Assembly: GCA_017303975.1 (NCBI GenBank)
Contig: JAFLBG010000005.1
Coordinates: 39,353-103,352, forward strand
Direction of reading: 5' to 3'
DNA length: 64,000 nucleotides
Origin: Bacteroidota bacterium
Lineage (GTDB): Bacteria; Bacteroidota; Bacteroidia; JAFLBG01
Shown here in pieces: positions 13,622 through 55,543 of this stretch; position 1 is the first letter of the stretch; each line of letters starts with the position of its first letter. Made by a program: the position numbers and the translations under genes. The notes under the pieces are model-generated. The model was not told the DNA's origin, made no database searches, and saw only the letters and a list, made by a program, of their open reading frames with translations.

Positions 13622-15352
13622 ATGGCAAAACGTATCATTTTAGCTTTTTTTATCGGAGCAACTACATTGCCCAACTTTTTTACGGCACAAAACCTCTATT
13701 TTATTGGAAAGGTTGGAGGTGGCGGTACAGATCAAGGTAATGGAATAGTTTCCGACAAATTTAATAACAGCTATACCATAGGAACGTTTGAAGGGACTGT
13801 AGATTTTGACCCAAGTGCCAATACATCAATACTAACCTCAAACGGAGGAACAGATATATTTGTGTTAAAGTTAAATTTTAACGGAGGCTTTGTTTGGGCA
13901 AAGACCTTTGGTGGTATTAACAATGATGAAGGAACATCTATAGCACTTGACTCTACAGGTAATATCTATTTTACAGGATCATTCAAAGACAGTGTTGATT
14001 TTGACCCTGGAAGTGGAGTATATAACTTAGCATCTGTAGGATTTGAAGATATTTACGTGTGTAAACTAAATCCACAAGGAAATTTAATTTGGGCAAAGAC
14101 TATCGGTAGTGCTGACACTGATGCTTCAACAGCAATAACCTTAAGTGATTCGGGGTATGTGTACCTCACAGGATATTTTAATGACCCTGCAGATTTCGAC
14201 CCAAATACTGGAACTACAACGCTAACACCATCGGGCATAAATGATGCTTTTGTATGTAAGCTAGATACTTCGGGCAATTTTAATTGGGCAAAAAACATAG
14301 GTGGCACATTTTCTACACGTGCAAAATCTATTCAAGTTGATAATGTAGGTGCAATATATCTTGTCGGACAATTTGATTTTACAACCGATTTCGACCCTAG
14401 TCCTGCAAGCTCTTATTCAATTACCTCTTGGGGACAAACAGATGCTTTTGTTGTTAAATTAGACGCAAGCGGAAATTTAATTTGGGCTAAAAAACTAGGA
14501 GGATTGAGTGGAGAAGCCGCAACTGCATTAGCCCTATCACCCACATTTAATCATGTTTATATAGCCGGCTACTTTTCAGGAAGTGCTGATTTCGACCCCA
14601 GCAGCTCAAACTTTACACTTACTTCTAATGGATCGAGAGATATTTTTATATGCCAGTTAGACTCATCAGGCAATTTTAATTGGGCAAATCAAATCGGAGG
14701 CACATCTGTTTCCTATTTCGATGAACCTTATGGGATTTGTGCAAATTCAACAGGAGCATACTTCACAGGAAAAATTGGGGGTGGAGGAGCTATAGATTTT
14801 GACCCAAGTAACGCAACATATTTACTTACTCCAATTGGCAATTACGATATTTTTGTTTGCAAATTAAATACAAATGGATCTTTTGGTGGAGCATATAATG
14901 TTGGGGGAACTGCGCCCATCACAAAAAAAGGAAACGCAATCACATTAGACTCATGGGGAAACATACTAACCACAGGAGCATTTGCAGGAACTGTTGATTT
15001 CGACCCTGGATCAAGCAGTAATAATCTAGTAGCTTCCGGACCAACGGATTGCTTTATTCATAGCGTTACACAATCTGCTCTTTCAATTAATGATATCGAG
15101 AGACAAAACCAAGCCTTTCTTTTGTTTCCTAATCCAGCTAATGGGTTCATTCAACTAGTTATTCCACAAGAATATAGTGCTGATGAAGTAGTTGTTGTAA
15201 ATGCATTAGGAACAACGCTACTAAGTTATTCTATTAACCAAAACGAAAGCACGATTCAAATCAACATCACCTCTATTTCGGACAACCTATCATTTGTTCA
15301 ACTAAAAAACAAAGGTGTAACGCTTGCAACTCAAAAGTTGGTTATTTACTAA
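13622..15352 (+). CDS. secreted SBBP (beta-propeller) repeat protein with type-A T9SS C-terminal sorting domain
   Basis: signal peptide; at least 8 tandem ~50-aa repeats of the form G..D.G..I..D..GN.Y.TG.F....DFDP; C-terminal FLLFPNPANG...QLKNKGVTLATQKLVIY CTD. Confidence 0.75.
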   Translation: MAKRIILAFFIGATTLPNFFTAQNLYFIGKVGGGGTDQGNGIVSDKFNNSYTIGTFEGTVDFDPSANTSILTSNGGTDIFVLKLNFNGGFVWAKTFGGINNDEGTSIALDSTGNIYFTGSFKDSVDFDPGSGVYNLASVGFEDIYVCKLNPQGNLIWAKTIGSADTDASTAITLSDSGYVYLTGYFNDPADFDPNTGTTTLTPSGINDAFVCKLDTSGNFNWAKNIGGTFSTRAKSIQVDNVGAIYLVGQFDFTTDFDPSPASSYSITSWGQTDAFVVKLDASGNLIWAKKLGGLSGEAATALALSPTFNHVYIAGYFSGSADFDPSSSNFTLTSNGSRDIFICQLDSSGNFNWANQIGGTSVSYFDEPYGICANSTGAYFTGKIGGGGAIDFDPSNATYLLTPIGNYDIFVCKLNTNGSFGGAYNVGGTAPITKKGNAITLDSWGNILTTGAFAGTVDFDPGSSSNNLVASGPTDCFIHSVTQSALSINDIERQNQAFLLFPNPANGFIQLVIPQEYSADEVVVVNALGTTLLSYSINQNESTIQINITSISDNLSFVQLKNKGVTLATQKLVIY

Positions 15353-34071: not shown

Positions 34072-34596
34072 TTAGTAGTACAAATACTCGTTAGATAAAA
34101 CGAATGAGAAATAAACTATCTCAGGCGAAATTTTTGTAGAGTCTAAGTTGCCTCCGGAATCTTTCCCCCATGTTTCGATATAGTTTTTTACATATGTTTT
34201 TTCTGCTTCGGTAGGATATCGTATATAAAAACGCTTGTAGGTGTCGTTCACAAATTTATCTACATCGGCCATCATCTCTACATGGGTTGGCTTTAATACT
34301 TTTTTGCTTACATCGTTCAACATGTTATTAATTACCAATTCTCGCACCAACGATTTATCCCCCACAGCTTCTATTGTCTGACTAATTTCAAAAATTTGAT
34401 TGGCACTAAGCGCCTTTTGAAAAAGGTTGGCATGCAGTATAGCCACAAACTGCTCGTTGGTTTTTAGTTTTGTTTTACCAGATGTGCTAGGGTTTAATGT
34501 AATGGGATTTACATCATACGTAGGCTCTAATTCTTTTTTGCAACCTACCACAAAAAGAAACAGACAAAGGGTTGATGTAATTAATATTTTTTTCAT
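34072..34596 (-). CDS. lipoprotein, unknown function (174 aa)
   Basis: lipobox (FVVGCKK); 11-nt gap to the downstream gene. Confidence 0.5.
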   Translation of the reverse strand: MKKILITSTLCLFLFVVGCKKELEPTYDVNPITLNPSTSGKTKLKTNEQFVAILHANLFQKALSANQIFEISQTIEAVGDKSLVRELVINNMLNDVSKKVLKPTHVEMMADVDKFVNDTYKRFYIRYPTEAEKTYVKNYIETWGKDSGGNLDSTKISPEIVYFSFVLSNEYLYY

Positions 34597-34641
34597 TTTA
34601 AAGTTTGTTAATTGAAACTATACACTTTCAATTTAAATACG

Positions 34642-34711
34642 CCACAAAGTCTTCGACTGGCTCAGGCTGACTTTCGCTCGGTCATATTGAGCCTGTCGAA
34701 ATAGTGCGTTG
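34642..34711 (-). repeat. copy A of a ~70-nt palindromic repeat element with 13-bp imperfect terminal inverted repeats TTCGACAGGCTCA...TGAGCCTGTCGAA; intragenic-operon location
   Basis: the reverse complement aligns at about 85% identity with 49967..50037, including the flanking CA(A/G)CGCACT and CGAAGACTT blocks. Confidence 0.7.
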
Positions 34712-34767
34712 AGTTATTAAAAAAATCATTTATTTATCTATTTATTTTTTTTATACAATCATTCATT

Positions 34768-35691
34768 TTAAAATCCTGCATATTCATTCGTAATCAACAC
34801 TTTTCGTTGCAATTTTTGTAAATCATGGTCGGCATATAATTCTTGTATATAGGTGTATATCTCGCTGGAAGATGGGCTTCTGGATAAAAAGCTCTTGTAT
34901 GTCCACCAAATTAATCCTTCGTAAAATTCGTGCGAGGTTGTTGCTATTTTTATAAAATCTCCCTTGTTCTGCCCAGACATTCCAAAAAGTGTTGCAGGCT
35001 TGTTGTATTCCACCATATCATAGGCTTTGTTGTATTCATTAATATCTGGAAAGCGGTAATACAAATCATTAAATACAGCATTAATAAAATTGAAAGAATT
35101 CATGTTGATCTGATCGTACACTTTATTGTACACCATTGCATAAAAAACATCATTTATATCAATCGAATCGTTTCGGTATTTGGATTGAGAATCGTGTATA
35201 GCCCATAGTTTTCGAACTTCAATCCTATTTATTTCTGCACCAAGAGAATCTCCATTAGTCGAATCTACAACAACATTATATTGATAATGCCCATAAATCC
35301 AATTCCCTATTATGTCTTGATCGCTTATAGACTCTAACGTTCTAGCTTTTGCCATTTCATAAAGCTTGTTATAGTAAGCATATTTGTAAGAGGAATCTCC
35401 GGGCAAATACGTTTCATCTGTTTGCAACCTAAGTACAATTGCCTCTCGAGCTGCCATGCTTACATCAGAGGCACGTAAAATTTCAACATCTCTTTGCAGT
35501 TCGGTTTGCAGTGCCTCCCTTCCTATTAAATCTATGTATAGTTTATTCACATAGTTTTCGAGTTTTATGGTGGAAAGCCCTTTGTATAGAGGTGCGTTAT
35601 TGTCTAAAATAAGTTCGGCATCTTTTTTACAAGAATGGATTAGGGTTAAAAAAGATAAAAGAAGAATTGAATAGTTAATTCTATTTCTCAT
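34768..35691 (-). CDS. lipoprotein, unknown function (307 aa)
   Basis: lipobox (LIHSCKK); first gene of the co-directional block. Confidence 0.5.
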   Translation of the reverse strand: MRNRINYSILLLSFLTLIHSCKKDAELILDNNAPLYKGLSTIKLENYVNKLYIDLIGREALQTELQRDVEILRASDVSMAAREAIVLRLQTDETYLPGDSSYKYAYYNKLYEMAKARTLESISDQDIIGNWIYGHYQYNVVVDSTNGDSLGAEINRIEVRKLWAIHDSQSKYRNDSIDINDVFYAMVYNKVYDQINMNSFNFINAVFNDLYYRFPDINEYNKAYDMVEYNKPATLFGMSGQNKGDFIKIATTSHEFYEGLIWWTYKSFLSRSPSSSEIYTYIQELYADHDLQKLQRKVLITNEYAGF

Positions 35692-35795: not shown

Positions 35796-36440
35796 CTACC
35801 TTACAACTAGTTTTTTATTGTAAAGCTTGTTATTACTACTTGCGGTAATTGTGTATAAACCGGGAGCTAAATTTTGGTTAGTTTCTATGTTTGTTATTAT
35901 TTGTTCCTCTTCTAAAATAAATGCTTTGGAGTAATGCTCTTTGCCCAACACATCGTGCACTACTATTAACACCTCTTCTCCGGACTGTCCGGTAAATGCT
36001 ACATTGATATTACCATTGGTTGCCGGATTAGGGTAAACCATCAGTAGAGAACTTTCCAACTTTAAACGTTGAAACTCTACCGCTACCAATTCGCTATAAT
36101 CATATGCTCCATCAAAATCGGTTTGTTTTAGGCGGTAGTAAGATGTGCCTTGAAAAGGCTTTGTATCAATTGTTGCATAATTTAGTATTTGAGAGCTATT
36201 GCCAGCTCCATCAACAGTTGCAACAAACTCATAATTAACTCCGTCTTGTGTTTTTTCAATTGTAAAGTAATCGTTATTCGTTTCGCTGGCAGTTGTCCAT
36301 TTTAATTGGGCGTATTCGTTATTTATATTTTCGGCTGTAAAACTTAATAGTTCTATCGGTAGGCCCACCATGCAGGTAGTAGCCAATTCAGAGGTATTGT
36401 TGTCTGATACTGTGCGCTGTGGCGGTAACACTTTCTCCAT
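35796..36440 (-). CDS. C-terminal segment (FN3-like domain plus type-A T9SS CTD) of a giant parallel beta-helix cargo; probably part of one gene spanning 35796..42065
   Basis: ends ...LMVYPNPATNGNINVAF...NKLYNKKLVVR (type-A CTD); the ORF opens only 3 codons upstream of its ATG and overlaps the 3' end of ORF 36388..39273 in another frame. Confidence 0.6.
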   Translation of the reverse strand: MEKVLPPQRTVSDNNTSELATTCMVGLPIELLSFTAENINNEYAQLKWTTASETNNDYFTIEKTQDGVNYEFVATVDGAGNSSQILNYATIDTKPFQGTSYYRLKQTDFDGAYDYSELVAVEFQRLKLESSLLMVYPNPATNGNINVAFTGQSGEEVLIVVHDVLGKEHYSKAFILEEEQIITNIETNQNLAPGLYTITASSNNKLYNKKLVVR

Positions 36441-39423
36441 TATTAATAGTTACACCACTTAAGCTCCACGCCCCACTACCATTAGCTAATACTGACCCAA
36501 GGTATGTCATTGCATCTTGGCAATTGCCTGTATTGTTTTTAAATACTTCTACCGTATCGTTGGCTGTGGCTGTACCACTGACACTTGTTCCATTAAAGGC
36601 TGTTACGGATGGTTTTGCTTTGCTTGCATTGGCACTAGATGCTAGGGTTACACCACTGGCATTAGAGTAAATTAAATTTCTCGAAATTAAATTTCCTGTA
36701 CATGATGCCCCGGTTAAATAAACTCCAGCAGTACCATTGTGTGCAATTACATTACCATACGGATTTTGCCCGGTTGCCCCACTATTACCACCAATAGCAT
36801 TACCAATATTCCCATTGCTGATATATATTCCATAAGCCTGAACGGTTCCTGTAGGGGCACTTCCAGTTGAAGTACATCCAATATAATTTCCTTGTATTTT
36901 GGCACCAGTGGTGGTGGTTGAAAATAAGCGTATGCCATTTTGGGTATTTCCAGAAATTATATTTTTCTCGGCTGCACTCACCCCTCCAATCTGTAGGCCT
37001 AAAGTATTTGAAACTACCCTAATCCCAATATTTTGGTAGTAGTTAGAGGTGCCGGAAGTACCATCTGCAGCCAAACCTATTATATTACCCTTAATAACTA
37101 CATTATTATTATTGTTGTTAAAAAATATGATTCCGGACGATAATGCTCCATAGTTTGCAGAAATTACATTTCCATCACCAGCAGAGGTGCCTCCAATTTG
37201 GGTGCCATTTGCGCCACTTAACAGATGAATTCCTGCATCTTGCGAAGAAGAAGCAATGCCGGAAGCCCCGTCAGTTCCCACTCCAATGTAATTTCCTTTT
37301 ATAATGGTACCGGTCATATTGGTATTTATATAGATGCCTGCTGTTTCATTCCCGCCAATAATATTTCTTTTACCCGAACCATTGCCTCCAATAGTTTGGT
37401 TATTGCTATTAACATAAATTCCGTTTAGTTGGGTATTCGAAGAAACATAACTCATACCATTTGCTTGTGTACCTATATGATTTCCAAAAACATTATCTAC
37501 TCCACTCGATTCTAAAATAATACCACTATTTATATTTCCGCTTATAACATTTCCTTCGCCAGCTGTTGTACCACCAATGGTATTTCCGTTAGAAGTGCCT
37601 GATAAATATACCCCTATGTCGTTCGAAGCTTTTGTGCTTCCATCACTACCTAAACCTATATAGTTCCCCTTAATATTGTTTCCACTAGAACTTCCGGATA
37701 TGCTTATTCCCCAGGCGTTATATCCAAATGTTAAAACATATTCGTGCCCTGAAATTATATTTCTACCGGAAGAAGTTCCGTTTCCAATGAGATTTCCATA
37801 CGAATTACTTATGTCTATCCCAACACCCTGACCACTACTATTTGCAGTCGAAACTTCTGAAACACCATCCGGATTTAACCCAATAATATTACCTAGTATT
37901 GTGTGGGATGTAACAGAGCTTAGTAAAATTCCTGTTCCATTTGAGTCATTTAATTGATCACCATTGTCAGAAATAGTATTTCCTTCGCCACTGGTGGTTC
38001 CCCCTATTGTGTTGGAATGTGCAGAACTATGGCACGATATTCCAGTGCGTTGTCCAATGGTATAAGATATGCCCGATGCGTCTTCATCTGAACCTATTCC
38101 AATTTTATTGCCTTTTATGCTATTGCCTGAAGTGCTTGCTCCTGTTAGCAAAATACCCGCTGTATTATTTAATGAAATAATATTACGAGCTCCGGTTGTG
38201 CCACTCCCTATTTGATTATTGGTGCTCCCATTAGCCAAGTATATACCATAGTCCTGATCGCTATTTACCTCCCCAAGTCCACCTCTATTTAAACCAATTA
38301 CATTACCTAAAATAGTATGAGAAGATACTCCGTTTAAATAAATACCTGAATTTGTATTTCCTGTAACTGTATTTTCCTCGGCTGAAGCCGTACCTCCAAT
38401 GGTGTTGCTATTGGATGAAGCTCCTCCCGAAATATAAATGCCATAATCTTGTGATGATGTAGCTATAGCAGATGTTCCATTACTTGCTAATCCTATATAA
38501 TTTCCTTTAATACTAGCGCCTGTTGTATAGTTAGAAATATAAATTCCCGCCTCTGTATTTGCAGATATAATATTGCGAGCTCCGGATACATTTCCCCCTA
38601 TTACGTTGTTTGACATATATTCTCCATCTCCAAAATCGTAGAAATAGATACCATATTTTTGGGTAGAAGATGTAACAACAGTAGAGCCATCTGCTTGCGG
38701 GCCTATGGTATTTCCAATTATGGTATTACTACTTACCGATTCGGGATTATAATCTAACGCACTTCCTAAATAAATGCCATACCCTCCTGCAGCACCATCG
38801 TTATTGCCTGATATAATATTTCCTTCTCCGGCTGCAGTTCCGCCAATGGTATTATACATACAGGCATCATATAAATACGCGCCATAATTTTGGGTGCTGC
38901 TTGTCACAAAAGAAGTGCCATTGCTTTGCAATCCTATGTAGTTTCCTTTTACTACGTTTCCGGTTGCTCCCGGATAAGTAATAGTGACACCCGAATATTC
39001 ATTCCCGGAAATAATATTTCGTTGAGCGTTTGCACCACCAACAGTATTATTAGTACCAGATATATCCACACCCGTTTGTTGAGCATGGGAGGTTACATAA
39101 GTACTACCATCTTTTTGTAGCCCTATTACATTTCCAATAACAGAATTGTTTGTTCCCCCAACTCCAATACCGGAAGTGTTCCCCGAAATTACATTTGCCT
39201 CTCCTGCAGCGGTGCCTCCTATTGTGTTGTACGAGCCAGCTAGACCAACCCCTCCTTGAGCAGATGATGTCATAAAGCTAGTGCCATTGCTTTGCAGTCC
39301 AATAAAATTTCCTTTGACAATATTTCCGGTAGTACCGGAGCCACTGAAATTTACCCCTGCACTTTTATTTCCTGAAATAACATTTCCACCTGCGGTTTGG
39401 GTATTACCAATAACATTGTTTAA
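36388..39423 (-). CDS. middle segment of the giant parallel beta-helix repeat protein (PbH1-type N.IGGT..GEGN.ISGN repeats)
   Basis: the reading frame stays open upstream of the annotated ATG (39273) through 39423 and keeps the same repeat motif (..NNVIGNTQTAGGNVISGN..GNFIGLQSNGTSF-MTSS..); the annotated 147-nt intergenic gap is therefore coding. Confidence 0.6.
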   Translation of the reverse strand, partial: LNNVIGNTQTAGGNVISGNKSAGVNFSGSGTTGNIVKGNFIGLQSNGTSFMTSSAQGGVGLAGSYNTIGGTAAGEANVISGNTSGIGVGGTNNSVIGNVIGLQKDGSTYVTSHAQQTGVDISGTNNTVGGANAQRNIISGNEYSGVTITYPGATGNVVKGNYIGLQSNGTSFVTSSTQNYGAYLYDACMYNTIGGTAAGEGNIISGNNDGAAGGYGIYLGSALDYNPESVSSNTIIGNTIGPQADGSTVVTSSTQKYGIYFYDFGDGEYMSNNVIGGNVSGARNIISANTEAGIYISNYTTGASIKGNYIGLASNGTSAIATSSQDYGIYISGGASSNSNTIGGTASAEENTVTGNTNSGIYLNGVSSHTILGNVIGLNRGGLGEVNSDQDYGIYLANGSTNNQIGSGTTGARNIISLNNTAGILLTGASTSGNSIKGNKIGIGSDEDASGISYTIGQRTGISCHSSAHSNTIGGTTSGEGNTISDNGDQLNDSNGTGILLSSVTSHTILGNIIGLNPDGVSEVSTANSSGQGVGIDISNSYGNLIGNGTSSGRNIISGHEYVLTFGYNAWGISISGSSSGNNIKGNYIGLGSDGSTKASNDIGVYLSGTSNGNTIGGTTAGEGNVISGNINSGIILESSGVDNVFGNHIGTQANGMSYVSSNTQLNGIYVNSNNQTIGGNGSGKRNIIGGNETAGIYINTNMTGTIIKGNYIGVGTDGASGIASSSQDAGIHLLSGANGTQIGGTSAGDGNVISANYGALSSGIIFFNNNNNNVVIKGNIIGLAADGTSGTSNYYQNIGIRVVSNTLGLQIGGVSAAEKNIISGNTQNGIRLFSTTTTGAKIQGNYIGCTSTGSAPTGTVQAYGIYISNGNIGNAIGGNSGATGQNPYGNVIAHNGTAGVYLTGASCTGNLISRNLIYSNASGVTLASSANASKAKPSVTAFNGTSVSGTATANDTVEVFKNNTGNCQDAMTYLGSVLANGSGAWSLSGVTINNGESVTATAHSIRQQYL

Positions 39424-42065
39424 GGAGCTGTGGCTATATAAACTCCAAAGGCTTGAATAGAAGCTACGGCCGAAGTTACAATAGTAGAGCCATCTTTTTG
39501 CGGACCAATAAAATTGCCTACTACCGTATTGCTACTTGCTGCATTTAAATAAACTCCCCAGCCTGTGGGTGTACCGGCACCGTCTCCGTTTCCACTTATT
39601 ACATTTCCTTCTCCTGCTGCCGTGCCGCCTATGGTGTTAGCGGATGCAGAGGTGGTTAAATATATTCCGTAGTCTTGTGAAGAAGATGTAACTACTGTAG
39701 TACCATTGCTTTGCAAACCAATGTAGTTGCCTTTTATGTTGTTACCGCTACAGCCAGCCCCTGTCAGGTATGCGCCATAAGTGGCATTTCCTGATAGAAT
39801 GTTTCTGCCCGAACTAATTGTATTTCCAATTGTGTTATTGGTAGAGTTGTTGGCTAAATAAACTCCATAATGTTGTCCATTAGAACTTATTAGAGTTGAG
39901 CCATCTTTTTGCAAACCAATAATATTTCCTGTTACCGTATTGGAACTAACACCATTAATGTAAACCCCATAACCAATGGAGGTGGAATTATTTTGATTAC
40001 CGGATATTACATTGGCGTCTGCGGTGTTATTTCCTCCAATAGTATTAAATGCTGCACTATTGGTTATATACACCCCATACTCTTGATAACCGCTTTTGGT
40101 GGCTCCATCGGAGCCCACACCAATGTAATTACCTCGTACAATATTGCCCGATGTGCCAGAGCCATCTAGATATAAGCCATATTGACTTGCCATAGAAATG
40201 ATGTTGCCCTCTCCGGCAGCAGAACCTCCAATGTAGTTTCCAAAACTTGCATTGTAGAGCGCAAGATTGTACTGAGAAATAGAATTCGCGCTATTGGTTA
40301 TACCATCTGCTTGTAAGCCTAAAACATTTCCTATTATGGTGTTAGAGGTTGCTGCACTCAAATGTATGCCTGTTCCGGCTGTATATCCAACATTCCGATT
40401 GGAAGAAATAACATTTTTATCTGAAGTAGAAGTTCCTCCTATTCGATTCGATTTTGCTCCGGATGCCAAATAAATACCAAACGCTTGTGTGCCGTTACTC
40501 ACCCTACCAGTGCCTGCAGAATTTACTCCTATATAATTGCCAATAATTGTATTAGAACTGGCTCCGGCCCCGGTAAGATAGATGCCGTAACCATTTGAGA
40601 CATTATCGCAATTACCCGAAATAATGTTTCTGGCTATTGTTGAGGAATTACCGCCAATTGTATTTCCATAACAGCCATTGCAATATACTCCATGGCTTTG
40701 TGTGGTAGAGGTTACAGCTGTAGAACCCCCAACTTGCGGACCAATAGTATTTCCTAACAACGTATTGGAGGTAACTCCATTTAAATACACACCATATCCG
40801 GTTGATGTACCATCAGAATTGCCACTAATAACATTTCCTTCTCCTGTAGCAGTGCCACCAATAGTATTTCGTTGTGCAGAGCCTGTTAAATAAACTCCAT
40901 TATCTTGTGTATTGCTAGTTATAAAAGTGGCGCCATCGCTTGCAATACCTATGTAGTTTCCTTTTATTTGATTAGCAGAAGAAGATGAGCCTGTTAAATA
41001 AACTCCGGAGTTGGTATTAGCTGAAATAATATTTCTGAAACTACCAGATGTACCACCTATTATTAAAGAGTAAGAGTTGGATAAATAAATGCCATAGGTT
41101 TGTGGGTTTGAAGCTCCCGTTATTACAGAGCTTCCGGTAGACGTAGTACCAATTCGATTGCCGTATATGTATTGAGGGGTAGTTATACTAGAACAGAAAA
41201 TCCCACTACTACTATTCCCAGAAATTAAGTTGCCATCGTTGATGCCCGTTCCCCCAATGGTATTACTTGTTCCAACACCAGTAAGTAAAATGCCGGTGGC
41301 GTATTTAGAGGCTCGGGTTGTTCCATCTTTTTGCAGCCCAATAATGTTTCCTTTTATTATATTTCCTGTAGAGGAGGCTCCGGACATGATAATTTGCCCG
41401 AACGACCCAAAACCAGAGATATTACAACCACTTATTAAATTAACACCCGATGCAGTTCCATCGCCTATAAGATTATTGGCAGAGTTTACAATGTAAATTC
41501 CAATATCGGTATTATAGGTAGTGGTAGAGCCATCGGTGTCTATACCTATGTAACAAGCGGTTATAGTATGCGAAGAACTGGAGTTTAAATGTATTCCGTA
41601 GTCGCCAAAACTACCTGCCGTTCCAAAATTTCTTAGTACTAACCCCTTTATCAAACTACCGTCTGACCCTGCATTTAACACTAAGCCATCAAAAGCTCCT
41701 GTGCCTCCTCCATCAATACAAACCATATTTTGGTAAGATAGCGGATTAGCCACAGTTGTGGCAAAGGGAACAACGGTATTAGTTACAAAACCTGTATTGG
41801 AAGTACCGTCAATAAAAACTTGAGCAGCCATAGCGGGCAAAGCGGCTGTTAATGTTATTACAGCAGCGCCTACACTAAAATTAATAGTTCCACCTCCTCC
41901 TCCATTTTCATTGTCGTTTATTGCCTCTCTTAGCGAACAGTGTATTCCATCGCAAGTTCCATCATCCACATCGTTTGTAGAATTTACTGTATAGGTTTGA
42001 CCTATAAGCAAATTACTTATAACAAAAAATAAAAATACCAAATATTCTATTCTCTTGACAATCAT
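39420..42065 (-). CDS. N-terminal segment (signal peptide plus parallel beta-helix repeats) of the giant T9SS cargo
   Basis: signal peptide; more than 30 tandem ~23-aa beta-helix repeats; stop at 39420..39422 falls mid-repeat (..QAFGVYIATAP*). Confidence 0.6.
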   Translation of the reverse strand: MIVKRIEYLVFLFFVISNLLIGQTYTVNSTNDVDDGTCDGIHCSLREAINDNENGGGGGTINFSVGAAVITLTAALPAMAAQVFIDGTSNTGFVTNTVVPFATTVANPLSYQNMVCIDGGGTGAFDGLVLNAGSDGSLIKGLVLRNFGTAGSFGDYGIHLNSSSSHTITACYIGIDTDGSTTTYNTDIGIYIVNSANNLIGDGTASGVNLISGCNISGFGSFGQIIMSGASSTGNIIKGNIIGLQKDGTTRASKYATGILLTGVGTSNTIGGTGINDGNLISGNSSSGIFCSSITTPQYIYGNRIGTTSTGSSVITGASNPQTYGIYLSNSYSLIIGGTSGSFRNIISANTNSGVYLTGSSSSANQIKGNYIGIASDGATFITSNTQDNGVYLTGSAQRNTIGGTATGEGNVISGNSDGTSTGYGVYLNGVTSNTLLGNTIGPQVGGSTAVTSTTQSHGVYCNGCYGNTIGGNSSTIARNIISGNCDNVSNGYGIYLTGAGASSNTIIGNYIGVNSAGTGRVSNGTQAFGIYLASGAKSNRIGGTSTSDKNVISSNRNVGYTAGTGIHLSAATSNTIIGNVLGLQADGITNSANSISQYNLALYNASFGNYIGGSAAGEGNIISMASQYGLYLDGSGTSGNIVRGNYIGVGSDGATKSGYQEYGVYITNSAAFNTIGGNNTADANVISGNQNNSTSIGYGVYINGVSSNTVTGNIIGLQKDGSTLISSNGQHYGVYLANNSTNNTIGNTISSGRNILSGNATYGAYLTGAGCSGNNIKGNYIGLQSNGTTVVTSSSQDYGIYLTTSASANTIGGTAAGEGNVISGNGDGAGTPTGWGVYLNAASSNTVVGNFIGPQKDGSTIVTSAVASIQAFGVYIATAP

Positions 42066-49430: not shown

Positions 49431-49907
49431 ATGGCAGAAACGTTATTTATTAAATCGACCGATAAAAAAGAAAAATACTCCGAGTTATTTACTCAGCTGG
49501 AAGCGCTATTACAAAACGAAAGCGACATTATTGCAAACACAGCCACAATTGCGGCTGCCATAAAACAAACCTTCGATTTTTTATGGGTGGGATTCTATTT
49601 TGTAAAGAACAACGAATTAGTACTGGGTCCGTTTCAAGGACAAATTGCTTGCACCCGCATTGCTTATGGCAGAGGCGTTTGCGGAAGTGCGTGGAAAGAG
49701 CAAAAAACAATTATTGTTCCTGATGTGGATAAATTTCCGGGGCACATAGCCTGCAGTAGTCTGTCTCGCTCAGAAATTGTTGTGCCAATTAAAAATAATA
49801 ACAGCAATACTATTACAATGGTATTAGACATAGACAGCGAAACACTAAATTCGTTTAACGAAGACGATAAATTGGGATTAGAAAAAATTATAATGCTGCT
49901 AGCTTAA
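49431..49907 (+). CDS. GAF-domain protein (free methionine-R-sulfoxide reductase-like family)
   Basis: 158 aa, WVGFY...G.GVCG motif typical of the YebR/fRMsr-type GAF; 2-nt gap after comF. Confidence 0.7.
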   Translation: MAETLFIKSTDKKEKYSELFTQLEALLQNESDIIANTATIAAAIKQTFDFLWVGFYFVKNNELVLGPFQGQIACTRIAYGRGVCGSAWKEQKTIIVPDVDKFPGHIACSSLSRSEIVVPIKNNNSNTITMVLDIDSETLNSFNEDDKLGLEKIIMLLA

Positions 49908-49966
49908 CTACTATGGATTGAAAATCCGTAGGTTTAAATACATAAATGAAAATTATTTTAAAACTT

Positions 49967-50037
49967 CAGCGCACTTATTTCGACAAGCTCAACATGACCG
50001 CGCTAGTCAGTCTGAGCCTGTCGAAGACTTGGGGTGG
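49967..50037 (+). repeat. copy B of the ~70-nt palindromic repeat element, in inverted orientation relative to copy A
   Basis: CAGCGCACTTATTTCGACAAGCTCAACATGACCGCGCTAGTCAGTCTGAGCCTGTCGAAGACTTGG; internal 11 to 13-bp inverted arms; lies about 65 nt upstream of the lipoprotein gene at 50101. Confidence 0.7.
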
Positions 50038-50100
50038 AATCATTTTAGAAACTGGGAGCTATGAACTAAAGAGCATGGCTAAAACTAACGAACAGGAACA

Positions 50101-51729
50101 ATGAAACATGTGTATAAAATAGCATTTTTCACTATCAGCTTACTACTGCTGTATTCCTGTGCGCAAATGGTAAATCCATCGGGCGGACAAACAGACACTA
50201 CTCCTCCCCTACCTGTAAAATGTGTGCCGGCAAATAAGTCAACAAACATAAAGCCTTCAAACATTTATTTAGAATTCAACGAATATATTGACTTGAAAGA
50301 TGTAAACGGGCAGCTTATTGTATCTCCAACATTAAAATACCAGCCTGACATAAAACATAAAAAGAAACAAATTTTCGTAACGCTAACGGACACGTTAAAA
50401 GAAAACACTACCTATACTTTTAATTTTGGCAGCTCTATTCGCGACATAACCGAAAACAATATCACTGAAGGCTACAGCTATGTTTTTTCTACCGGTGCTT
50501 ATCTTGACTCTTTTACTGTGAGTGGTATTGTAAAAGATGCTCGAACAAACGAACTAAAAAAAAATATAAGCATTTGCTTGTACGAAAACACTTCTGATTC
50601 GGCAGTTGTAAAACAAAAGCCTAATTATTTTACAAAAACAAAACCGGATGGCAGCTATCTACTTAATAATATTAAAGAGGGCACCTACAAACTAGCTGCT
50701 ATTAACGATGTCAACAACAATCAACTATATGATATAGACGAAGAGATAGCCTTCTACGACACTTTGCTATCTATTGCAAAAAAAGAAAATAAGGTTAATC
50801 TATCTATGTTTAAAGGTGTTCCCGATAAGCTTAAAATAAAAAAAGCAACAGCAACATCACCACAACACATTTCTATAGTATTTAACAAATATGCAGATTC
50901 ATTAACTGTTGAAGCCGCATCAGTTGGCATACTTGATACAACTTACTTAATATGGAATAGCAATCACGACTCGTTATCTATTTTTTTAGCAGACACCTCG
51001 CTAAAAGATTCATTGAAATTATTTTTCAAAAGTGTTAATTTCAAAGATACGGCAACTATACGCTTGCCAAAGAAAAGAAGTGTAAAAGACGACTCAAGAA
51101 ACACTATTTACACAACCATACAGTTTACAGATATCACAAAGCAGGATGTACTAAAAAAAATAAACATTTCTTGCACTTATCCAATAACAACCATAGATAC
51201 AAGCAAAATCATCCTAGAGGCGGGCACAAAAAACAAAATTCCAATATCACTTTCTTTCAACAAAACCTACAATCAAAAAGCATTTCAACTCAATAGTAAA
51301 GATTGGAAAGTAGATTCTATCTATACAATTACACTATTGCCCGGGGCGATTAAATCTACTAGTATCTCCAATACAGATACAATAAAAAGCACATTTGCTG
51401 TTGTGGGCAAAGACTACTACGGAATCATTTTACTTTCATTCCCAAGACCGCTAATAGCTGCAGAGAGCAGCTATATACTAGAAATAGCAACTGTTACAGG
51501 AAAAGTGATTTATAAGTCTGTTTTTACACCCACAACAAAATATACAATTGAAAATGTGCTACCCGGCAAATACACCATGCGCTTATTAAAAGACGAAAAC
51601 AAAAACAAACGTTGGGATAGCGGAAATTATTTTAAACATAAACAGCCCGAAAAAATAATCATCTTCCCAAAAGAAATTGTTGTTCGCTCTAATTGGGATT
51701 TAGAACTCGAATGGGATTTAAAAGAATAG
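50101..51729 (+). CDS. lipoprotein with probable Ig-like beta-sandwich domains, unknown function
   Basis: lipobox (LLLYSCAQ); 542 aa, beta-rich. Confidence 0.5.
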   Translation: MKHVYKIAFFTISLLLLYSCAQMVNPSGGQTDTTPPLPVKCVPANKSTNIKPSNIYLEFNEYIDLKDVNGQLIVSPTLKYQPDIKHKKKQIFVTLTDTLKENTTYTFNFGSSIRDITENNITEGYSYVFSTGAYLDSFTVSGIVKDARTNELKKNISICLYENTSDSAVVKQKPNYFTKTKPDGSYLLNNIKEGTYKLAAINDVNNNQLYDIDEEIAFYDTLLSIAKKENKVNLSMFKGVPDKLKIKKATATSPQHISIVFNKYADSLTVEAASVGILDTTYLIWNSNHDSLSIFLADTSLKDSLKLFFKSVNFKDTATIRLPKKRSVKDDSRNTIYTTIQFTDITKQDVLKKINISCTYPITTIDTSKIILEAGTKNKIPISLSFNKTYNQKAFQLNSKDWKVDSIYTITLLPGAIKSTSISNTDTIKSTFAVVGKDYYGIILLSFPRPLIAAESSYILEIATVTGKVIYKSVFTPTTKYTIENVLPGKYTMRLLKDENKNKRWDSGNYFKHKQPEKIIIFPKEIVVRSNWDLELEWDLKE

Positions 51730-51730
51730 G

Positions 51731-52480
51731 TTACTCAAATTTTCTTAATTCTAATGTATTCCCATCAAAAACTGCATACGTAAAATATTTTACCCACTCA
51801 CCTAAATTAACATACCTAGAATGCTCATTTAGCTTGATGTCTAAAGGCAAGTGCCTGTGACCAAAAATAAAATAATCAAAATTTTCTTTCTTCAATTCCT
51901 CTCGTGCAAACTGAACTAACCATTCCTTGTCTTCTCCTAAAAAAATTTCATCTTTTTCAATATTCGCTACACGGCTTTTTTTAGACCAAAACTTAGCCAT
52001 CCCAATTCCTAAGTTAGGGTGCAATCGGGCAAACAACCACTGGCAAAAAGGATTTGCAAAAACCCTTTTAATAAACTTATATCCATGATCTCCGGGACCC
52101 AATCCATCGCCATGCGCTAAAAAGAACTTTTTATTATTGTACACCTTTACAATTGATTTGCGAATTATTTGCACACCTAATTCCTTGGGCAAATAATCAA
52201 ACATCCACATATCATGATTTCCGGTAAAAACATATACTGGAATTCCGGCATCAGTTAACTCTGCTATTTTCCCTTGCAACCGCGCAAATCCTTTCGGAAT
52301 AGCACTTCTATACTCAAACCAAAAATCAAACAAATCTCCCATCAAATAAACTTCTTTGGCGTTTTGTTTTATTTCATCCAACCACTTCACAATTTTTTTT
52401 TCGCGTACCAAACTGGTTTCATAATCAGGAACTCCCAAATGAAAATCGGATGCAAAATATATATTGTTGCGCAATGTCAC
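51731..52480 (-). CDS. lpxH: UDP-2,3-diacylglucosamine diphosphatase (calcineurin-like metallophosphoesterase)
   Basis: DFHLG...GDLFDFW...GNHD...GHRH metallophosphatase motifs in the LpxH arrangement, 249 aa. Confidence 0.75.
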   Translation of the reverse strand: MTLRNNIYFASDFHLGVPDYETSLVREKKIVKWLDEIKQNAKEVYLMGDLFDFWFEYRSAIPKGFARLQGKIAELTDAGIPVYVFTGNHDMWMFDYLPKELGVQIIRKSIVKVYNNKKFFLAHGDGLGPGDHGYKFIKRVFANPFCQWLFARLHPNLGIGMAKFWSKKSRVANIEKDEIFLGEDKEWLVQFAREELKKENFDYFIFGHRHLPLDIKLNEHSRYVNLGEWVKYFTYAVFDGNTLELRKFE

Positions 52481-55458
52481 TATATTTTAATTTCTCTTAT
52501 CAACTTAAATGGATTAACGCTTTTTAAATTCAAGCTAAATCGTATTGTCTCGGGATATGTCCACCCGTTTACTGTAATCGTATTTTTAATATCAGACGAC
52601 ATGGCTAGAGGCAAGTAAATATCAAACACATTTTTATAAATGGAAAACACCAAGCCCGCATTATACAAAAACTGTTGCTTTAAAACTGCATCGCTGGCAA
52701 CATACGCAAAATCTGCGTACAGCCGAATAATTGGGAAAGGCAACGATGTTTTTAGATTTAATGCGGTAAGCCATTTTCGAGTTTGCCCTAAAGGTGTATA
52801 TACTTTAAAAGCACCATCTGCTTCTGTAAATTGCTGCGACAACAAGCCGGAAGCCTCTGTTCGTCCTAAGAAAATATCATCATACAGATAATCTTGATAA
52901 CCTCTCCATCCACTTGTTCTAAAACGATATGGCCCAGCATTTGTAGCATTGATAAATGCTCCCGCAAACAATCGCACATCAAAGCTTTTATTTTTTTTCT
53001 TAAATGTAAGCGAATAATTAGCTGTAAGGGAAATCTTGCTCATATCATCTCCCGCTTGATAATTCAACACAGCTTGATATGGATTAATTGGACGAAGATT
53101 TTTTAACTCATATGATACCTCATGGAAATTTCTATATACTGTATCTCTTCCATAAACAGGAGGTGTAAATTCGTACTTACCATAATAGGTTTCATTTATT
53201 TGGTATATAAATCTATAATTAAGATAATGTTTAAGCGTATTACGCTCTCGTTTATTCTTAAATTCTGCACGCACAAAAGGAGCTAATTTTGTATAACTCA
53301 TATCAATAGGTGTCTGGGAGTACGAATACCTTTTCCCCTCCACACCAATTTGCACATTCGTAAATGAGCGCATAGACATAATGTTGTAATGTACATTGAA
53401 AGAGCCAGCCAAATCCTTGTTACCAAAAGCGTACATAGGCATTAGAAAATACTCGAACTTGCGTTGCAATATAGTTTGATTATACAACGCAACTCCCAAC
53501 ATAGATTTATTGTAATTATTCCAACCATAAGTTGGCACAAAAAACAGTTGCGATTTGGCAGGATTATCAAGCCCTCCAAGAAACTGAATTTTTATCGGCT
53601 CTACCTTCTTCCCTATTTTTTTGTTTGCATATTTATTGTTGTTTCTATTTAGCTCCGGCACTTTTCCGGCATAGTCCAACACAAAATAATCAACATCTAA
53701 ACTCGGGAATCCCAAATTCTGAATGCCCGAAAACCCATCGTACCAGACTTCTGCAACTAACTTATTGTTTTTTATTCCACATAAATTTATCGGAGCATTT
53801 ATCTTTCCTTTGTTTTTAACCAATACATTATATCCCGACTCCTTTGAATTATACACTTTCATTATTTTGTAGTCAATTTTATTGGTAGTAGCCAATAGTT
53901 TATCAAAAAACCAACTCAAGTCTTTTCCCGATTCTTGCTCAAATATTTTTCTTATATCAGCCGGTTGCGGATGTTTAAATTTCCATTGCGTAAAATAGAT
54001 TTGCATTATCCTATCAAATTCCGACTGACCCAAGTAAGCCGCCAAATAACCAAATGTGTAGGCAGTTTTTTTATACACAATAGCACCGTAATTTAGCTCA
54101 GTATATTCTTCTGATGTTAACTCAATGGGTTGATCGTTATTAAGAGATGCAGGATATGCATAACTTAAATACTCTTCGTTTAAACTAATGTTATTAATTT
54201 TAGCAAGAGCAGGAATATTAAAGCCGGGTAAATTCAATCCACTTCCGTGGTATAGTTTCGTGTATCGGCCTTCATAATAAGAGTTGATGCCTTCGTCCAT
54301 CCACGGATGCAAACGCTCGTTAGAACCTAATATCCCGTAAAACCAATTGTGTCCAACTTCGTGCGCTATAACAAGCTCTAAAAGTTCCTTGCTATTTGTA
54401 GGGCTAATAACTGTAATGGTAGGGTACTCCATTCCACCACCCGCAGTTAGCGCTCCATCAACTGCATTGCATACATTGTAAGGATAATTACCAACCCATT
54501 TACTGTAATTGAATACGGCATTGTTTATGTATTGTATGCTATTGCTTTTCCACGCTCCTGCATTCTTACTTGTAAAATAAGCCCAAGTAGTAACGGTTTT
54601 AGTGCTATCGGGCAACGCTACCTCTCCTTTTAAAACATTGTATCTCTTGTCTGCGAACCACGCAAAATCATGAATGTTTTCTTGTTGAAAATGAAGTGTT
54701 TTTAATTCTTTGTTGGAAGCAGGGAAAACCATTTCTGCATCTGTAAATGTATTGCGAGCAGAGGTTTCGTTCGCCTTCTTATTCAACCATTCAAGTTCTT
54801 GATTGTCCATTAGATTGCCAGTGGCTGCAATTACATAATTCTTTGGAGCAGTAATATACACATCAAAGGTTCCAAACTCTGAATAAAATTCGCCCAAATC
54901 TAAGTATGGCATAGGATGCCAACCATCCTTGTCGTACACTGCCGGCTTAGGATACCACTGAGATATTTGGTATTGTTGACTTACATGACCCAAGCGTGAA
55001 AAATTACCATCTGGAATTTTAACTCGAAAAGGAGTTGTTATGGTAATAGTTTCTCCGGGCTTAATAGGTGAATTTAGCAGCAATTTGGCAACGTCAATAT
55101 TTTCTTTATCTACTTCATATTTTACAGCTATATCATTTACCTTAAAGCTCAAACTATCTATAAAACCGCGCTTATCGGCCGATGCAAAATAAAATTCTTT
55201 GTTACCATTCTCAAACAATTGCTTGCCCAGTGCGGTAGTATTATCTTTATAGCCATTGGGCCATAAATGCATATATATAAAAGCTAACTCGTCCGGAGAA
55301 TTATTTGTATAGGATATTGCTTCAAAAGCATGTAGTTCGTGCTTATTATCGTTAAGCTGAACTTTGATATCGTAATTTACAGATTGTTGAAAATAGGATT
55401 GAGAAGATCCTACAAATGGAATAGAAAAAAAAACTAGGCAATAAATTAAAAACCTCAT
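52480..55458 (-). CDS. M1-family zinc metallopeptidase, large and secreted
   Basis: HEVGHNWF...WMDEGINSYYE (HExxH plus E) motif; the start was moved from 55515 to the ATG at 55458 (MRFLIYCLVFFSIPFVGSS signal peptide) because 55459..55515 is occupied by a terminator hairpin. Confidence 0.75.
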   Translation of the reverse strand: MRFLIYCLVFFSIPFVGSSQSYFQQSVNYDIKVQLNDNKHELHAFEAISYTNNSPDELAFIYMHLWPNGYKDNTTALGKQLFENGNKEFYFASADKRGFIDSLSFKVNDIAVKYEVDKENIDVAKLLLNSPIKPGETITITTPFRVKIPDGNFSRLGHVSQQYQISQWYPKPAVYDKDGWHPMPYLDLGEFYSEFGTFDVYITAPKNYVIAATGNLMDNQELEWLNKKANETSARNTFTDAEMVFPASNKELKTLHFQQENIHDFAWFADKRYNVLKGEVALPDSTKTVTTWAYFTSKNAGAWKSNSIQYINNAVFNYSKWVGNYPYNVCNAVDGALTAGGGMEYPTITVISPTNSKELLELVIAHEVGHNWFYGILGSNERLHPWMDEGINSYYEGRYTKLYHGSGLNLPGFNIPALAKINNISLNEEYLSYAYPASLNNDQPIELTSEEYTELNYGAIVYKKTAYTFGYLAAYLGQSEFDRIMQIYFTQWKFKHPQPADIRKIFEQESGKDLSWFFDKLLATTNKIDYKIMKVYNSKESGYNVLVKNKGKINAPINLCGIKNNKLVAEVWYDGFSGIQNLGFPSLDVDYFVLDYAGKVPELNRNNNKYANKKIGKKVEPIKIQFLGGLDNPAKSQLFFVPTYGWNNYNKSMLGVALYNQTILQRKFEYFLMPMYAFGNKDLAGSFNVHYNIMSMRSFTNVQIGVEGKRYSYSQTPIDMSYTKLAPFVRAEFKNKRERNTLKHYLNYRFIYQINETYYGKYEFTPPVYGRDTVYRNFHEVSYELKNLRPINPYQAVLNYQAGDDMSKISLTANYSLTFKKKNKSFDVRLFAGAFINATNAGPYRFRTSGWRGYQDYLYDDIFLGRTEASGLLSQQFTEADGAFKVYTPLGQTRKWLTALNLKTSLPFPIIRLYADFAYVASDAVLKQQFLYNAGLVFSIYKNVFDIYLPLAMSSDIKNTITVNGWTYPETIRFSLNLKSVNPFKLIREIKI

Positions 55459-55490
55459 CGATAGCTTAAAATAATACGCCTTAATATAAT

Positions 55491-55528
55491 AAAAAAGTCC
55501 CGTTATGTGATACATAACGGGACTTTTT
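55491..55528. terminator. bidirectional rho-independent terminator
   Basis: AAAAAGTCCCGTTATGT-GAT-ACATAACGGGACTTTTT; perfect 13-bp stem flanked by an A-run and a T-run, directly after the stop of ORF 55544..56920. Confidence 0.7.
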
Positions 55529-55543
55529 AACTGAATTATAAAA

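Follow-up and report, generated by a model that had tools for sequence, protein, structure and literature searches.

A palindromic element between two operon genes of a Bacteroidota bacterium is probably a copy of a dispersed REP-like repeat associated with small GIY-YIG genes

Introduction

Two described classes of hairpin repeats come closest to the element analyzed here. The first belongs to Ssn, a group of single-domain GIY-YIG nucleases that cut only single-stranded DNA (ssDNA) beside hairpin repeats named NTS or SRM; these repeats flank ssnA on both sides and also occur as hundreds of dispersed copies across phyla (Chenal et al. 2025, Nat Commun 16:2388; PMC11893778). SRM units have a long stem and a loop of 0-5 nt whose sequence is dispensable for cutting, and SsnA cuts 5' of its tag (PMC11893778). 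The second class, an earlier catalogue of this kind of repeat, is that of the CGTC-tagged REPs. These short stem-loops, known from phyla that include Proteobacteria, Bacteroidetes and Spirochaetes, are usually arranged as head-to-head dimers, lie largely outside genes and had no associated transposase; their CGTC tag is unpaired, their stems are of 8-9 bp and their loops of 4-5 nt (Di Nocera et al. 2013, BMC Genomics 14:522; PMC3733652).

In this study, we analyzed a stretch of 64,000 nt from a Bacteroidota bacterium (contig JAFLBG010000005.1; the whole stretch is called the window below), in which a preliminary description had reported a palindromic element in two inverted copies. Our results suggest that the copy at positions 49967-50037 (copy B) is probably a dispersed, non-coding REP-like repeat that came to lie between co-transcribed genes by insertion, that its two units are putative ssDNA hairpins of a GIY-YIG nuclease, and that it has no dedicated regulatory role.

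Results

Two inverted copies of the element in the window

The core of copy B on the plus strand (49967-50037) is the reverse complement of 34642-34713, where the same element lies in the opposite orientation (copy A, minus strand), over an alignment of about 70 nt with two small indels. This match, already noticed in the preliminary description, is the longest inverted pair of the window (34647-34677 with 50000-50030, 31 nt, 87%), and the element boundaries proposed there are about right. The likeness may run further, chiefly leftward to about 49935, through a part that is AT-rich and less certain; as a whole, the spacer holding copy B resembles that holding copy A from about 49935 to about 50088. 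When a 14-mer was searched through the whole window with up to three mismatches, 7 matches were found versus 2.6 expected, and the four arms of the two copies are the sole matches with no more than two mismatches. A half-unit covariance model (R1), the training set of which included these four arms, scores them at 28.6-37.2 bits (E-values 2e-5 to 7e-8), and its next-best match in the window reaches 10.5 bits. The window therefore contains exactly two elements.

Both copies lie between co-directional genes, have the same orientation relative to these genes, and are located 55-75 nt upstream of a gene start. Copy B sits in an intercistronic spacer of 193 nt on the plus strand (49908-50100), a gap length that we confirmed, between a GAF-domain gene (49431-49907, plus strand; Pfam GAF_2/GAF, orthologues 52-60% identical) and a gene for a lipoprotein with a Big_5 Ig-like domain (50101-51729, plus strand), whose start codon is confirmed by a lipobox, SCAQ, that aligns with the orthologues. 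Copy A sits in a spacer of 171 nt on the minus strand (34597-34767), flanked by a 307-aa gene (34768-35691), whose product is J0M08_03230, and a 174-aa gene (34072-34596). The GAF and lipoprotein genes are treated here as context only. A short hairpin (ATGGATT-GAA-AATCCGT, within 49908-49934) follows right after the GAF stop codon, upstream of the copy-A-like stretch, and may be a remnant of the original gene end or a piece of inserted DNA.

Short variable stems present conserved 13-nt loops

Two 13-mers, TTCGACARGCTCA (L) and its complement TGAGCYTGTCGAA (L'), define the repeat family to which both copies belong. The alignment to copy A and to the subfamily, together with the matches of the covariance model, resolve copy B into a head-to-head dimer of two hairpin units. 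The left unit (49972-49998, plus strand; R1 28.6 bits) has the stem TAT/ACA with one A-C mismatch (49976-49978 and 49992-49994), the 13-nt loop TTCGACAAGCTCA (49979-49991) and then the head TGAC (49995-49998); the TAT/ATA form of this stem is intact in subfamily relatives. The right unit (50006-50032, minus strand; R1 37.2 bits) has the head GTCA (50006-50009), an intact stem AGTC/GACT (50009-50012 and 50026-50029) and the loop TGAGCCTGTCGAA (50013-50025), which reads TTCGACAGGCTCA on the minus strand. Between the two heads lies the central spacer CGCGCTA (49999-50005), placed by the sequence and by the family layout, which is both the loop of a small central hairpin and the symmetry centre of copy B. 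In copy A, read on the plus strand, the loop TTCGACTGGCTCA (34652-34664) is closed by the stem GTC/GGC with one T-G wobble, and the loop TGAGCCTGTCGAA (34688-34700) by an intact TAT/ATA. Each window copy thus bears one intact stem and one stem with a single mismatch. The 23-mer GTCAGTCTGAGCCTGTCGAAGAC of the right unit of copy B is identical to a unit upstream of a GIY-YIG gene at another locus (L130).

The preliminary description had proposed a different structure, a hairpin formed by internal arms around a loop of about 25 nt. These arms exist, CGACAAGCTCA at 49981-49991 and TGAGCCTGTCG at 50013-50023; they pair with one A-C mismatch and are separated by 21 nt. An isolated strand does fold most favourably into the long hairpin that pairs L with L' (RNA, -27 to -28 kcal/mol; ssDNA, about -15 kcal/mol; z-scores -2.5 to -3.6). 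As a conserved structure, the long hairpin fails in the family: the registers that it needs are fully complementary in 10 of 179 elements each, which is the chance level, whereas the three nucleotides on either side of the 13-mer are fully complementary in 153 of the 179 elements in the left arm and in 156 in the right arm. The stems that close the 13-mers in these elements comprise more than 12 different sequences, and position 8 of the 13-mer (A or G) varies independently between the two arms. In a set of 150 units, each of the three pairs next to the loop is formed in 138-147 and comprises 3-5 pair types, and the covariation score is 0.577 versus 0.177 for shuffled units (0/500 shuffles) and 0.04-0.11 for slid controls. 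The complementarity of the stems and their covariation thus identify the unit of conservation: a 13-nt loop of conserved sequence on a short stem that varies. Two such stem-loop units, with stems of 3-7 bp, are placed head to head around TGAC-spacer-GTCA to form the element, and the long hairpin is not the conserved feature of the family.

Alone and as ssDNA, the unit hairpins of the window copies are barely stable (0 to -1.7 kcal/mol). Selection on the unit hairpins probably acts together with a protein, or on single units, and the covariation of the stems could also mirror the way in which units are generated instead of a structure that is being read. As an indicator of the strand that folds, the counts of G-T versus A-C mismatches are confounded by the fixed TGAC head. 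An outer closing stem, which would give a tRNA-like four-way junction, was considered as a general feature and rejected, being only slightly above the control overall and weak in the window; it is present in some subfamilies, for example those of Nitrospirota.

Distribution of the repeat family

The search for further copies that had been proposed for this element yielded many. The generic two-arm pattern matches 32 loci in viral contigs (GC content 36-70%), and a narrower subfamily pattern, which additionally demanded the inner TGAC...GTCA, matches at least 120 loci in reference genomes (one genome per species). By the titles of their records, the matches listed span about ten bacterial phyla, often with several loci per genome, and cultured isolates are among them. 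Bacteroidota of many families are represented, including the cultured Gillisia, Pinibacter, Mucilaginibacter, Rudanella, Elizabethkingia and Leeuwenhoekiella, and the other lineages among the matches listed are Nitrospirota, Spirochaetota, Patescibacteria, Ignavibacteria, Eremiobacterota, Alphaproteobacteria, Marinimicrobia, Calditrichota, Nitrospinota and Desulfobacterota-type metagenome-assembled genomes (MAGs). The nearest kin of the window copies among the matches listed are from uncultured Bacteroidota, with the consensus ..CGCACATAT-L-ATATGACC..GGTCAGTC-L'-GACCTTGGG. Other subfamilies carry GAACGG, GAGG or GACC in place of the GTCA/TGAC heads.

The elements are mainly intergenic, with 131 lying between genes versus 25 overlapping a crude ORF. 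They show no preference beyond background for tandem, convergent or divergent neighbours (for divergent ones, 14 of 131 versus a background of 14%). Near-identical copies occur at different loci of one genome, and tandem arrays are found as well. Among the densest loci, one has more than 25 units within 5 kb (L183), one viral contig has 14 pattern matches in 21 kb (L019/L020), and one has six tandem elements beside a GIY-YIG gene (L112); unit-dense or tandem-array loci also include L130, L123 and L009. Several Bacteroidota MAGs carry near-identical longer palindromes (about 150-170 nt) that have the dimer at their centre and outer inverted repeats of their own, such as ACGGGATAAATTTCCGCA... 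and CAATGTCATTAAGTTAAGAAGC... (L036, L064, L103, L109 and L116; L035, L040, L063, L095 and L110; L051, L084 and L100), which suggests mobile units of a nested or composite kind. In the window copies, the outer arms are weak.

With Rfam, the whole window at the gathering score gives only a tRNA, a permissive scan of 49850-50150 gives only noise, and none of the elements is matched in eight loci that contain canonical copies. A literature search with the DNA 13-mers and their translated peptides did not find a description of the loop motif. The translated peptides, such as FDKLRANG, LSLSKH and PELVEG, are common in spurious ORFs. A gene caller annotated a 52-aa ORF across copy B (L033 2734-2892, corresponding to about 49946-50104 of the window), and the family is likely the source of many spurious small "hypothetical proteins" in databases. 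A likeness of the loop to motifs of tmRNA, 23S rRNA or tRNA was considered and rejected as too short and unconvincing.

The two operon junctions in relatives

In three relatives, the orthologous GAF and lipoprotein genes overlap by 4-11 nt, versus the 193 nt between them here, and in three relatives the orthologous pair of 307-aa and 174-aa genes is 4-11 nt apart, versus 171 nt here. No repeat units were found in the orthologous loci of these relatives. By this comparison, copies A and B are lineage-specific insertions into tight operon junctions. The relatives with empty sites are remote, with protein identities of about 35-60%, so more than one step may have gone into building the spacers. 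No closer relative for an empty-site comparison is present in the databases, the best homologue of the lipoprotein being 39% identical, and no target-site duplication, parent IS or precise ends of the insertions were found.

We also looked for expression signals around the element. No terminator-like site, that is, a GC-rich hairpin with a T-run, is present in 49700-50300 or overlaps copy A, and no promoter-like signal accompanies copy B on the gene strand.

Association with a small GIY-YIG gene

To survey the neighbours of the repeat, we clustered 1140 ORFs from 152 element-bearing loci and annotated only the largest clusters. No recurrent transposase cluster was found among them. One small family adjoins elements in every locus in which it occurs, and it encodes proteins of 101-105 aa that consist of a GIY-YIG domain only (PF01541, E = 1e-17). 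Among the 120 element-selected loci listed, five contain this gene, and all five genes have units on both sides. Read along the sense strand, a unit [GTCA-stem-L'-stem] precedes the start codon by 25-75 nt, and after the ORF comes a unit [stem-L-stem-TGAC], which supplies about 7 final codons of the gene together with its TGA stop. The arrayed elements of L130 are separated by a spacer that matches the two ends of the segment with the gene, as though these arrays had arisen through loss of the gene. The gene is also carried by the cultured Mucilaginibacter phyllosphaerae PP-F2FG21 (L112) and Gillisia limnaea DSM 15749 (L128).

The association was examined independently in 80 metagenome loci, which were picked by similarity to the catalytic domain alone after the element-encoded tail had been removed. 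The 13-mers are present on both sides of the gene in 35 of the 80 loci and at least one is close by in 39, versus a density elsewhere in these loci of 0.16 per kb. When the loop pattern was broadened and three perfect closing pairs were demanded, the nearest hairpin upstream was L' in 39 loci, the nearest downstream was L in 40, and 29 of 74 loci had both. The distance from the start of the L loop to the end of the stop codon is exactly 19 nt in 12 loci. Many loci that lack a canonical 13-mer have variant loops in the same layout, such as TTCGAGTGCCTCA and TTCGACTCCGCTCA. The nearest protein neighbours share the same loop class in 35 of 53 cases versus 20.5 expected, which is no proof of recognition, because the gene and its flanks are inherited together.

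The GIY-YIG protein is 33% identical (E = 2e-12) to the product of a gene with the canonical NTS-gene-NTS layout, and its best matches among solved structures are the UPF0213 GIY-YIG proteins 1ZG2 (E = 7e-17) and 1YWL (E = 1e-15); an NCBIfam search with the protein gave no match. By sequence similarity, the partner protein is a homologue of Ssn-type nucleases, related through an NTS-flanked gene, with UPF0213 the nearest among structures; it may belong to the Ssn family (cd10448) or to the neighbouring UPF0213 group. The window itself contains no GIY-YIG gene. In the literature, nothing relevant was found on GIY-YIG proteins together with REPs or UPF0213/YhbQ, and a wider search gave the Ssn paper.

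As other partners, PKD/SprB proteins, response regulators, ABC transporters, an integrase and phage tail genes were considered and rejected, since they belong to common families or come from related contigs. A tyrosine recombinase (Phage_int_SAM_4 and Phage_integrase) occurs in five element loci (L047 and four others), mostly of Nitrospirota, and adjoins an element in two of them; this recurrence is possibly a coincidence.

Other observations

The region 35796-42065 on the minus strand contains two long ORFs, 36388-39273 (961 aa) and 39420-42065 (881 aa), that are made up of periodic repeats of about 200 nt; the 214-aa ORF after them has a T9SS sorting domain (Por_Secre_tail). In a metagenome copy of this region (L359), a 1162-aa gene and a tail ORF are called. 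The region may encode one giant secreted repeat protein that is broken by frameshifts or by the assembly of repeats. A second set of periodic repeats, of about 195 nt, lies inside coding sequence at 13765-15006 (families D8, D11, D12 and D17). A hairpin at 55482-55538, at the 5' end of an M1 peptidase gene (52480-55515, minus strand), has 27-nt arms (85% complementary) and a 3-nt loop, is preceded by an A-run and followed by a T-run, and resembles a bidirectional terminator. In a viral contig (L004 9821-9906), an RT-17 RNA (Rfam RF03020), a motif associated with reverse transcriptases, is located 3.6 kb away from an element.

Discussion

A proposed origin of the element

Two copies in the window and a family elsewhere confirm that the element is a repeated palindrome, as had been supposed. 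By homology with SsnA, the units would most likely be ssDNA recognition hairpins of the GIY-YIG nuclease, and the repeats would be spread or maintained through its activity; the enzyme could be encoded elsewhere in the host genome, or it may have been lost. If the analogy with SsnA holds, the nuclease would cut 5' of the GTCA head, which in a dimer is the central spacer (49999-50005 in copy B), on either strand. Fold-back repair, the joining of cassette ends or another event centred there might then produce the dimers, although this step is speculative. We infer that the nuclease would bind and cleave ssDNA and that the repeat would be mobile. Any effect of copy B on the GAF-lipoprotein transcript would be a by-product of the hairpins, and the transcripts of the two operons may both feel such a side effect.

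We put forward, as a tentative possibility that we would not favour at present, the broader idea that the large-loop hairpins (TTCGA...CTCA) and their GIY-YIG partners of about 100 aa form an undescribed branch of Ssn-like systems in about ten phyla, in which the nuclease reads the sequence of the loop instead of the stem, and in which free-standing head-to-head dimers, the two of the window among them, are footprints of events that the nuclease triggers at the cut site beside the GTCA heads. Should this be true, it would add a new REPtron-like mobile system and ssDNA nucleases with new specificities.

Alternative explanations

A role of the element at the RNA level, like that of some REPs, as a partial terminator, a barrier to RNases or a stabilizer of mRNA, is an unlikely explanation, and such a role may in any case be secondary to a selfish origin. 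Lying inside two operons, the element is almost certainly transcribed, copy B probably within the GAF-lipoprotein message, and its fold is stable. Nevertheless, it has no T-tract and no terminator-like site, it is not enriched downstream versus upstream of genes, and its frequency between divergent genes (14/131 against 14% in the background) shows no depletion beyond noise. Moreover, the element is symmetric, so that its two strands look alike, and an RNA-level role would leave the conserved loops and the link to a nuclease unexplained.

It is also improbable, to a clearly greater degree, that the element is a classical non-autonomous transposon, either a MITE mobilized by a DDE transposase or a REP mobilized by a RAYT (HUH-Y1). 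Such an origin would fit the dispersal of the palindrome between genes, the near-identical copies that one genome can carry at several loci, the longer inverted repeats of about 150-170 nt around it in some genomes, and the BIME-like tandem arrays. It is at odds with the neighbours, since no transposase family recurs among the largest clusters of ORFs from the 152 loci and the GIY-YIG gene is the sole neighbour that adjoins an element wherever it is found. In addition, there is no GTAG tag, no target-site duplication was seen, and the conserved part is the loop, not a terminal inverted repeat.

The preliminary description favoured a cis-regulatory element, acting in the 5'UTR or close to a promoter and shared by the lipoprotein gene (50101-51729) and the 174-aa gene (34072-34596). 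We give very little credence to such control, be it by a 5'UTR structure, a riboswitch-like RNA or an operator. The position of both copies 55-75 nt upstream of a gene start in the same relative orientation, and a strand that forms a stable hairpin (z of -2.5 to -3.6), would fit it, but the same orientation of two copies is expected by chance in half of the cases. A 5'UTR or promoter-proximal function is not supported, given the insertion of both copies, which are missing from the orthologous loci, at junctions that have no spacer in relatives, the lack of a promoter-like site near copy B on the gene strand and of terminator-like signals there, and a long hairpin that the family does not conserve. 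Shared control of the two genes is not supported either: across about ten phyla the genes next to the element are unrelated, their tandem, convergent and divergent arrangements occur at background proportions, only the GIY-YIG gene is recurrent, and no Rfam family matches. Finally, a chance or low-complexity likeness of the two stretches is practically negligible: AT-rich surroundings do inflate the similarity of the outer flanks, but the model E-values of 2e-5 to 7e-8 (with the four arms in the training set), the hundreds of related copies elsewhere, and the four arms as the only 14-mer matches in the window with two mismatches or fewer all speak against it.

Implications

For the locus itself, a tempting regulatory reading is removed, and what is left is two operons each split by a spacer of about 170-190 nt with what is probably a selfish repeat. 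More generally, a widespread palindrome that gene callers have turned into spurious small ORFs is now tied to a specific enzyme family, and the Ssn/SRM concept of 2025 is extended to a class of repeats that the published motif misses. The conserved loop and the free stem suggest another logic of recognition, which could widen the toolbox of site-specific ssDNA nucleases. As Ssn did for the CGTC-tagged REPs, the GIY-YIG family offers a candidate partner enzyme for another class of repeats without a known transposase.

Comparison with known systems

Like REP/BIME repeats and their RAYTs (REPtrons), the family comprises an enzyme gene between inverted hairpin repeats, enzyme-less copies, dimers and arrays, and in both systems the repeats are presumed to be recognized as ssDNA hairpins. 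It differs from REPtrons in having a GIY-YIG nuclease instead of an HUH-Y1 transposase and in lacking a GTAG tag. REPs are usually species-specific, whereas the loop sequence here is common to several phyla. The UPF0213/YhbQ-like proteins (1ZG2, 1YWL) are of the same size as the associated protein and are also single-domain; their function is uncharacterized, and we know of no report of an association with repeats.

The window element resembles the CGTC-tagged REPs in being a head-to-head dimer with GTCA heads, and the family, too, lies largely outside genes, although the head-to-head layout of its listed members was required by the search patterns. In contrast to the CGTC REPs, the stems here are of 3-7 bp, the 13-nt loops are conserved, and the GTCA head is often paired with TGAC. 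The CGTC tag itself has no counterpart in the window, where the heads lack the preceding C.

The likeness to Ssn/SRM is in the overall plan: a small single-domain GIY-YIG gene lies inside inverted hairpin repeats whose (C)GTCA heads point outward on both sides, and the repeats are dispersed, mainly intergenic, and present in many copies and many phyla. An NTS-flanked gene in a viral contig (L288), with CGTCATTCCCGCG...gene...CGCGGGAATGACG, has the same layout as L114 and L130. Nevertheless, the published SRM consensus, HGTCWYN(0-2)YYVSBRHN(0-5)WNVSBRGN(0-2)RNCYNB, has no match on either strand of the window, and it matches 1 of the 80 GIY-YIG loci versus 39 with a 13-mer. The window units carry GTCA/TGAC heads (50006-50009 and 49995-49998), which the subfamily search pattern itself demanded, and read AGTCAG and GGTCAT, each of which fails one position of HGTCWY. 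SRM units have a long stem and a short loop, whereas the stem here is short and variable and the 13-nt loop is conserved. Because the identity of the loop is dispensable for SsnA, recognition here would have to work differently.

It is worth noting that the two types of repeats are found together. In one Nitrospirae genome (MAG JACRHD01; L071, L104, L129, L132 and L137), dimers with TTCGAC loops are flanked by NTS/SRM-like hairpins of the CGTCATTCCCGC type, and in L225 a GIY-YIG gene between TTCGAC-type units is followed, 215 nt downstream, by a canonical NTS-type motif. The coexisting NTS/SRM-like and TTCGAC-type repeats may form composite elements. Ssn/SRM and the CGTC REPs are the closest known systems, and the family of conserved large loops and its link to a GIY-YIG enzyme appear to be undescribed.
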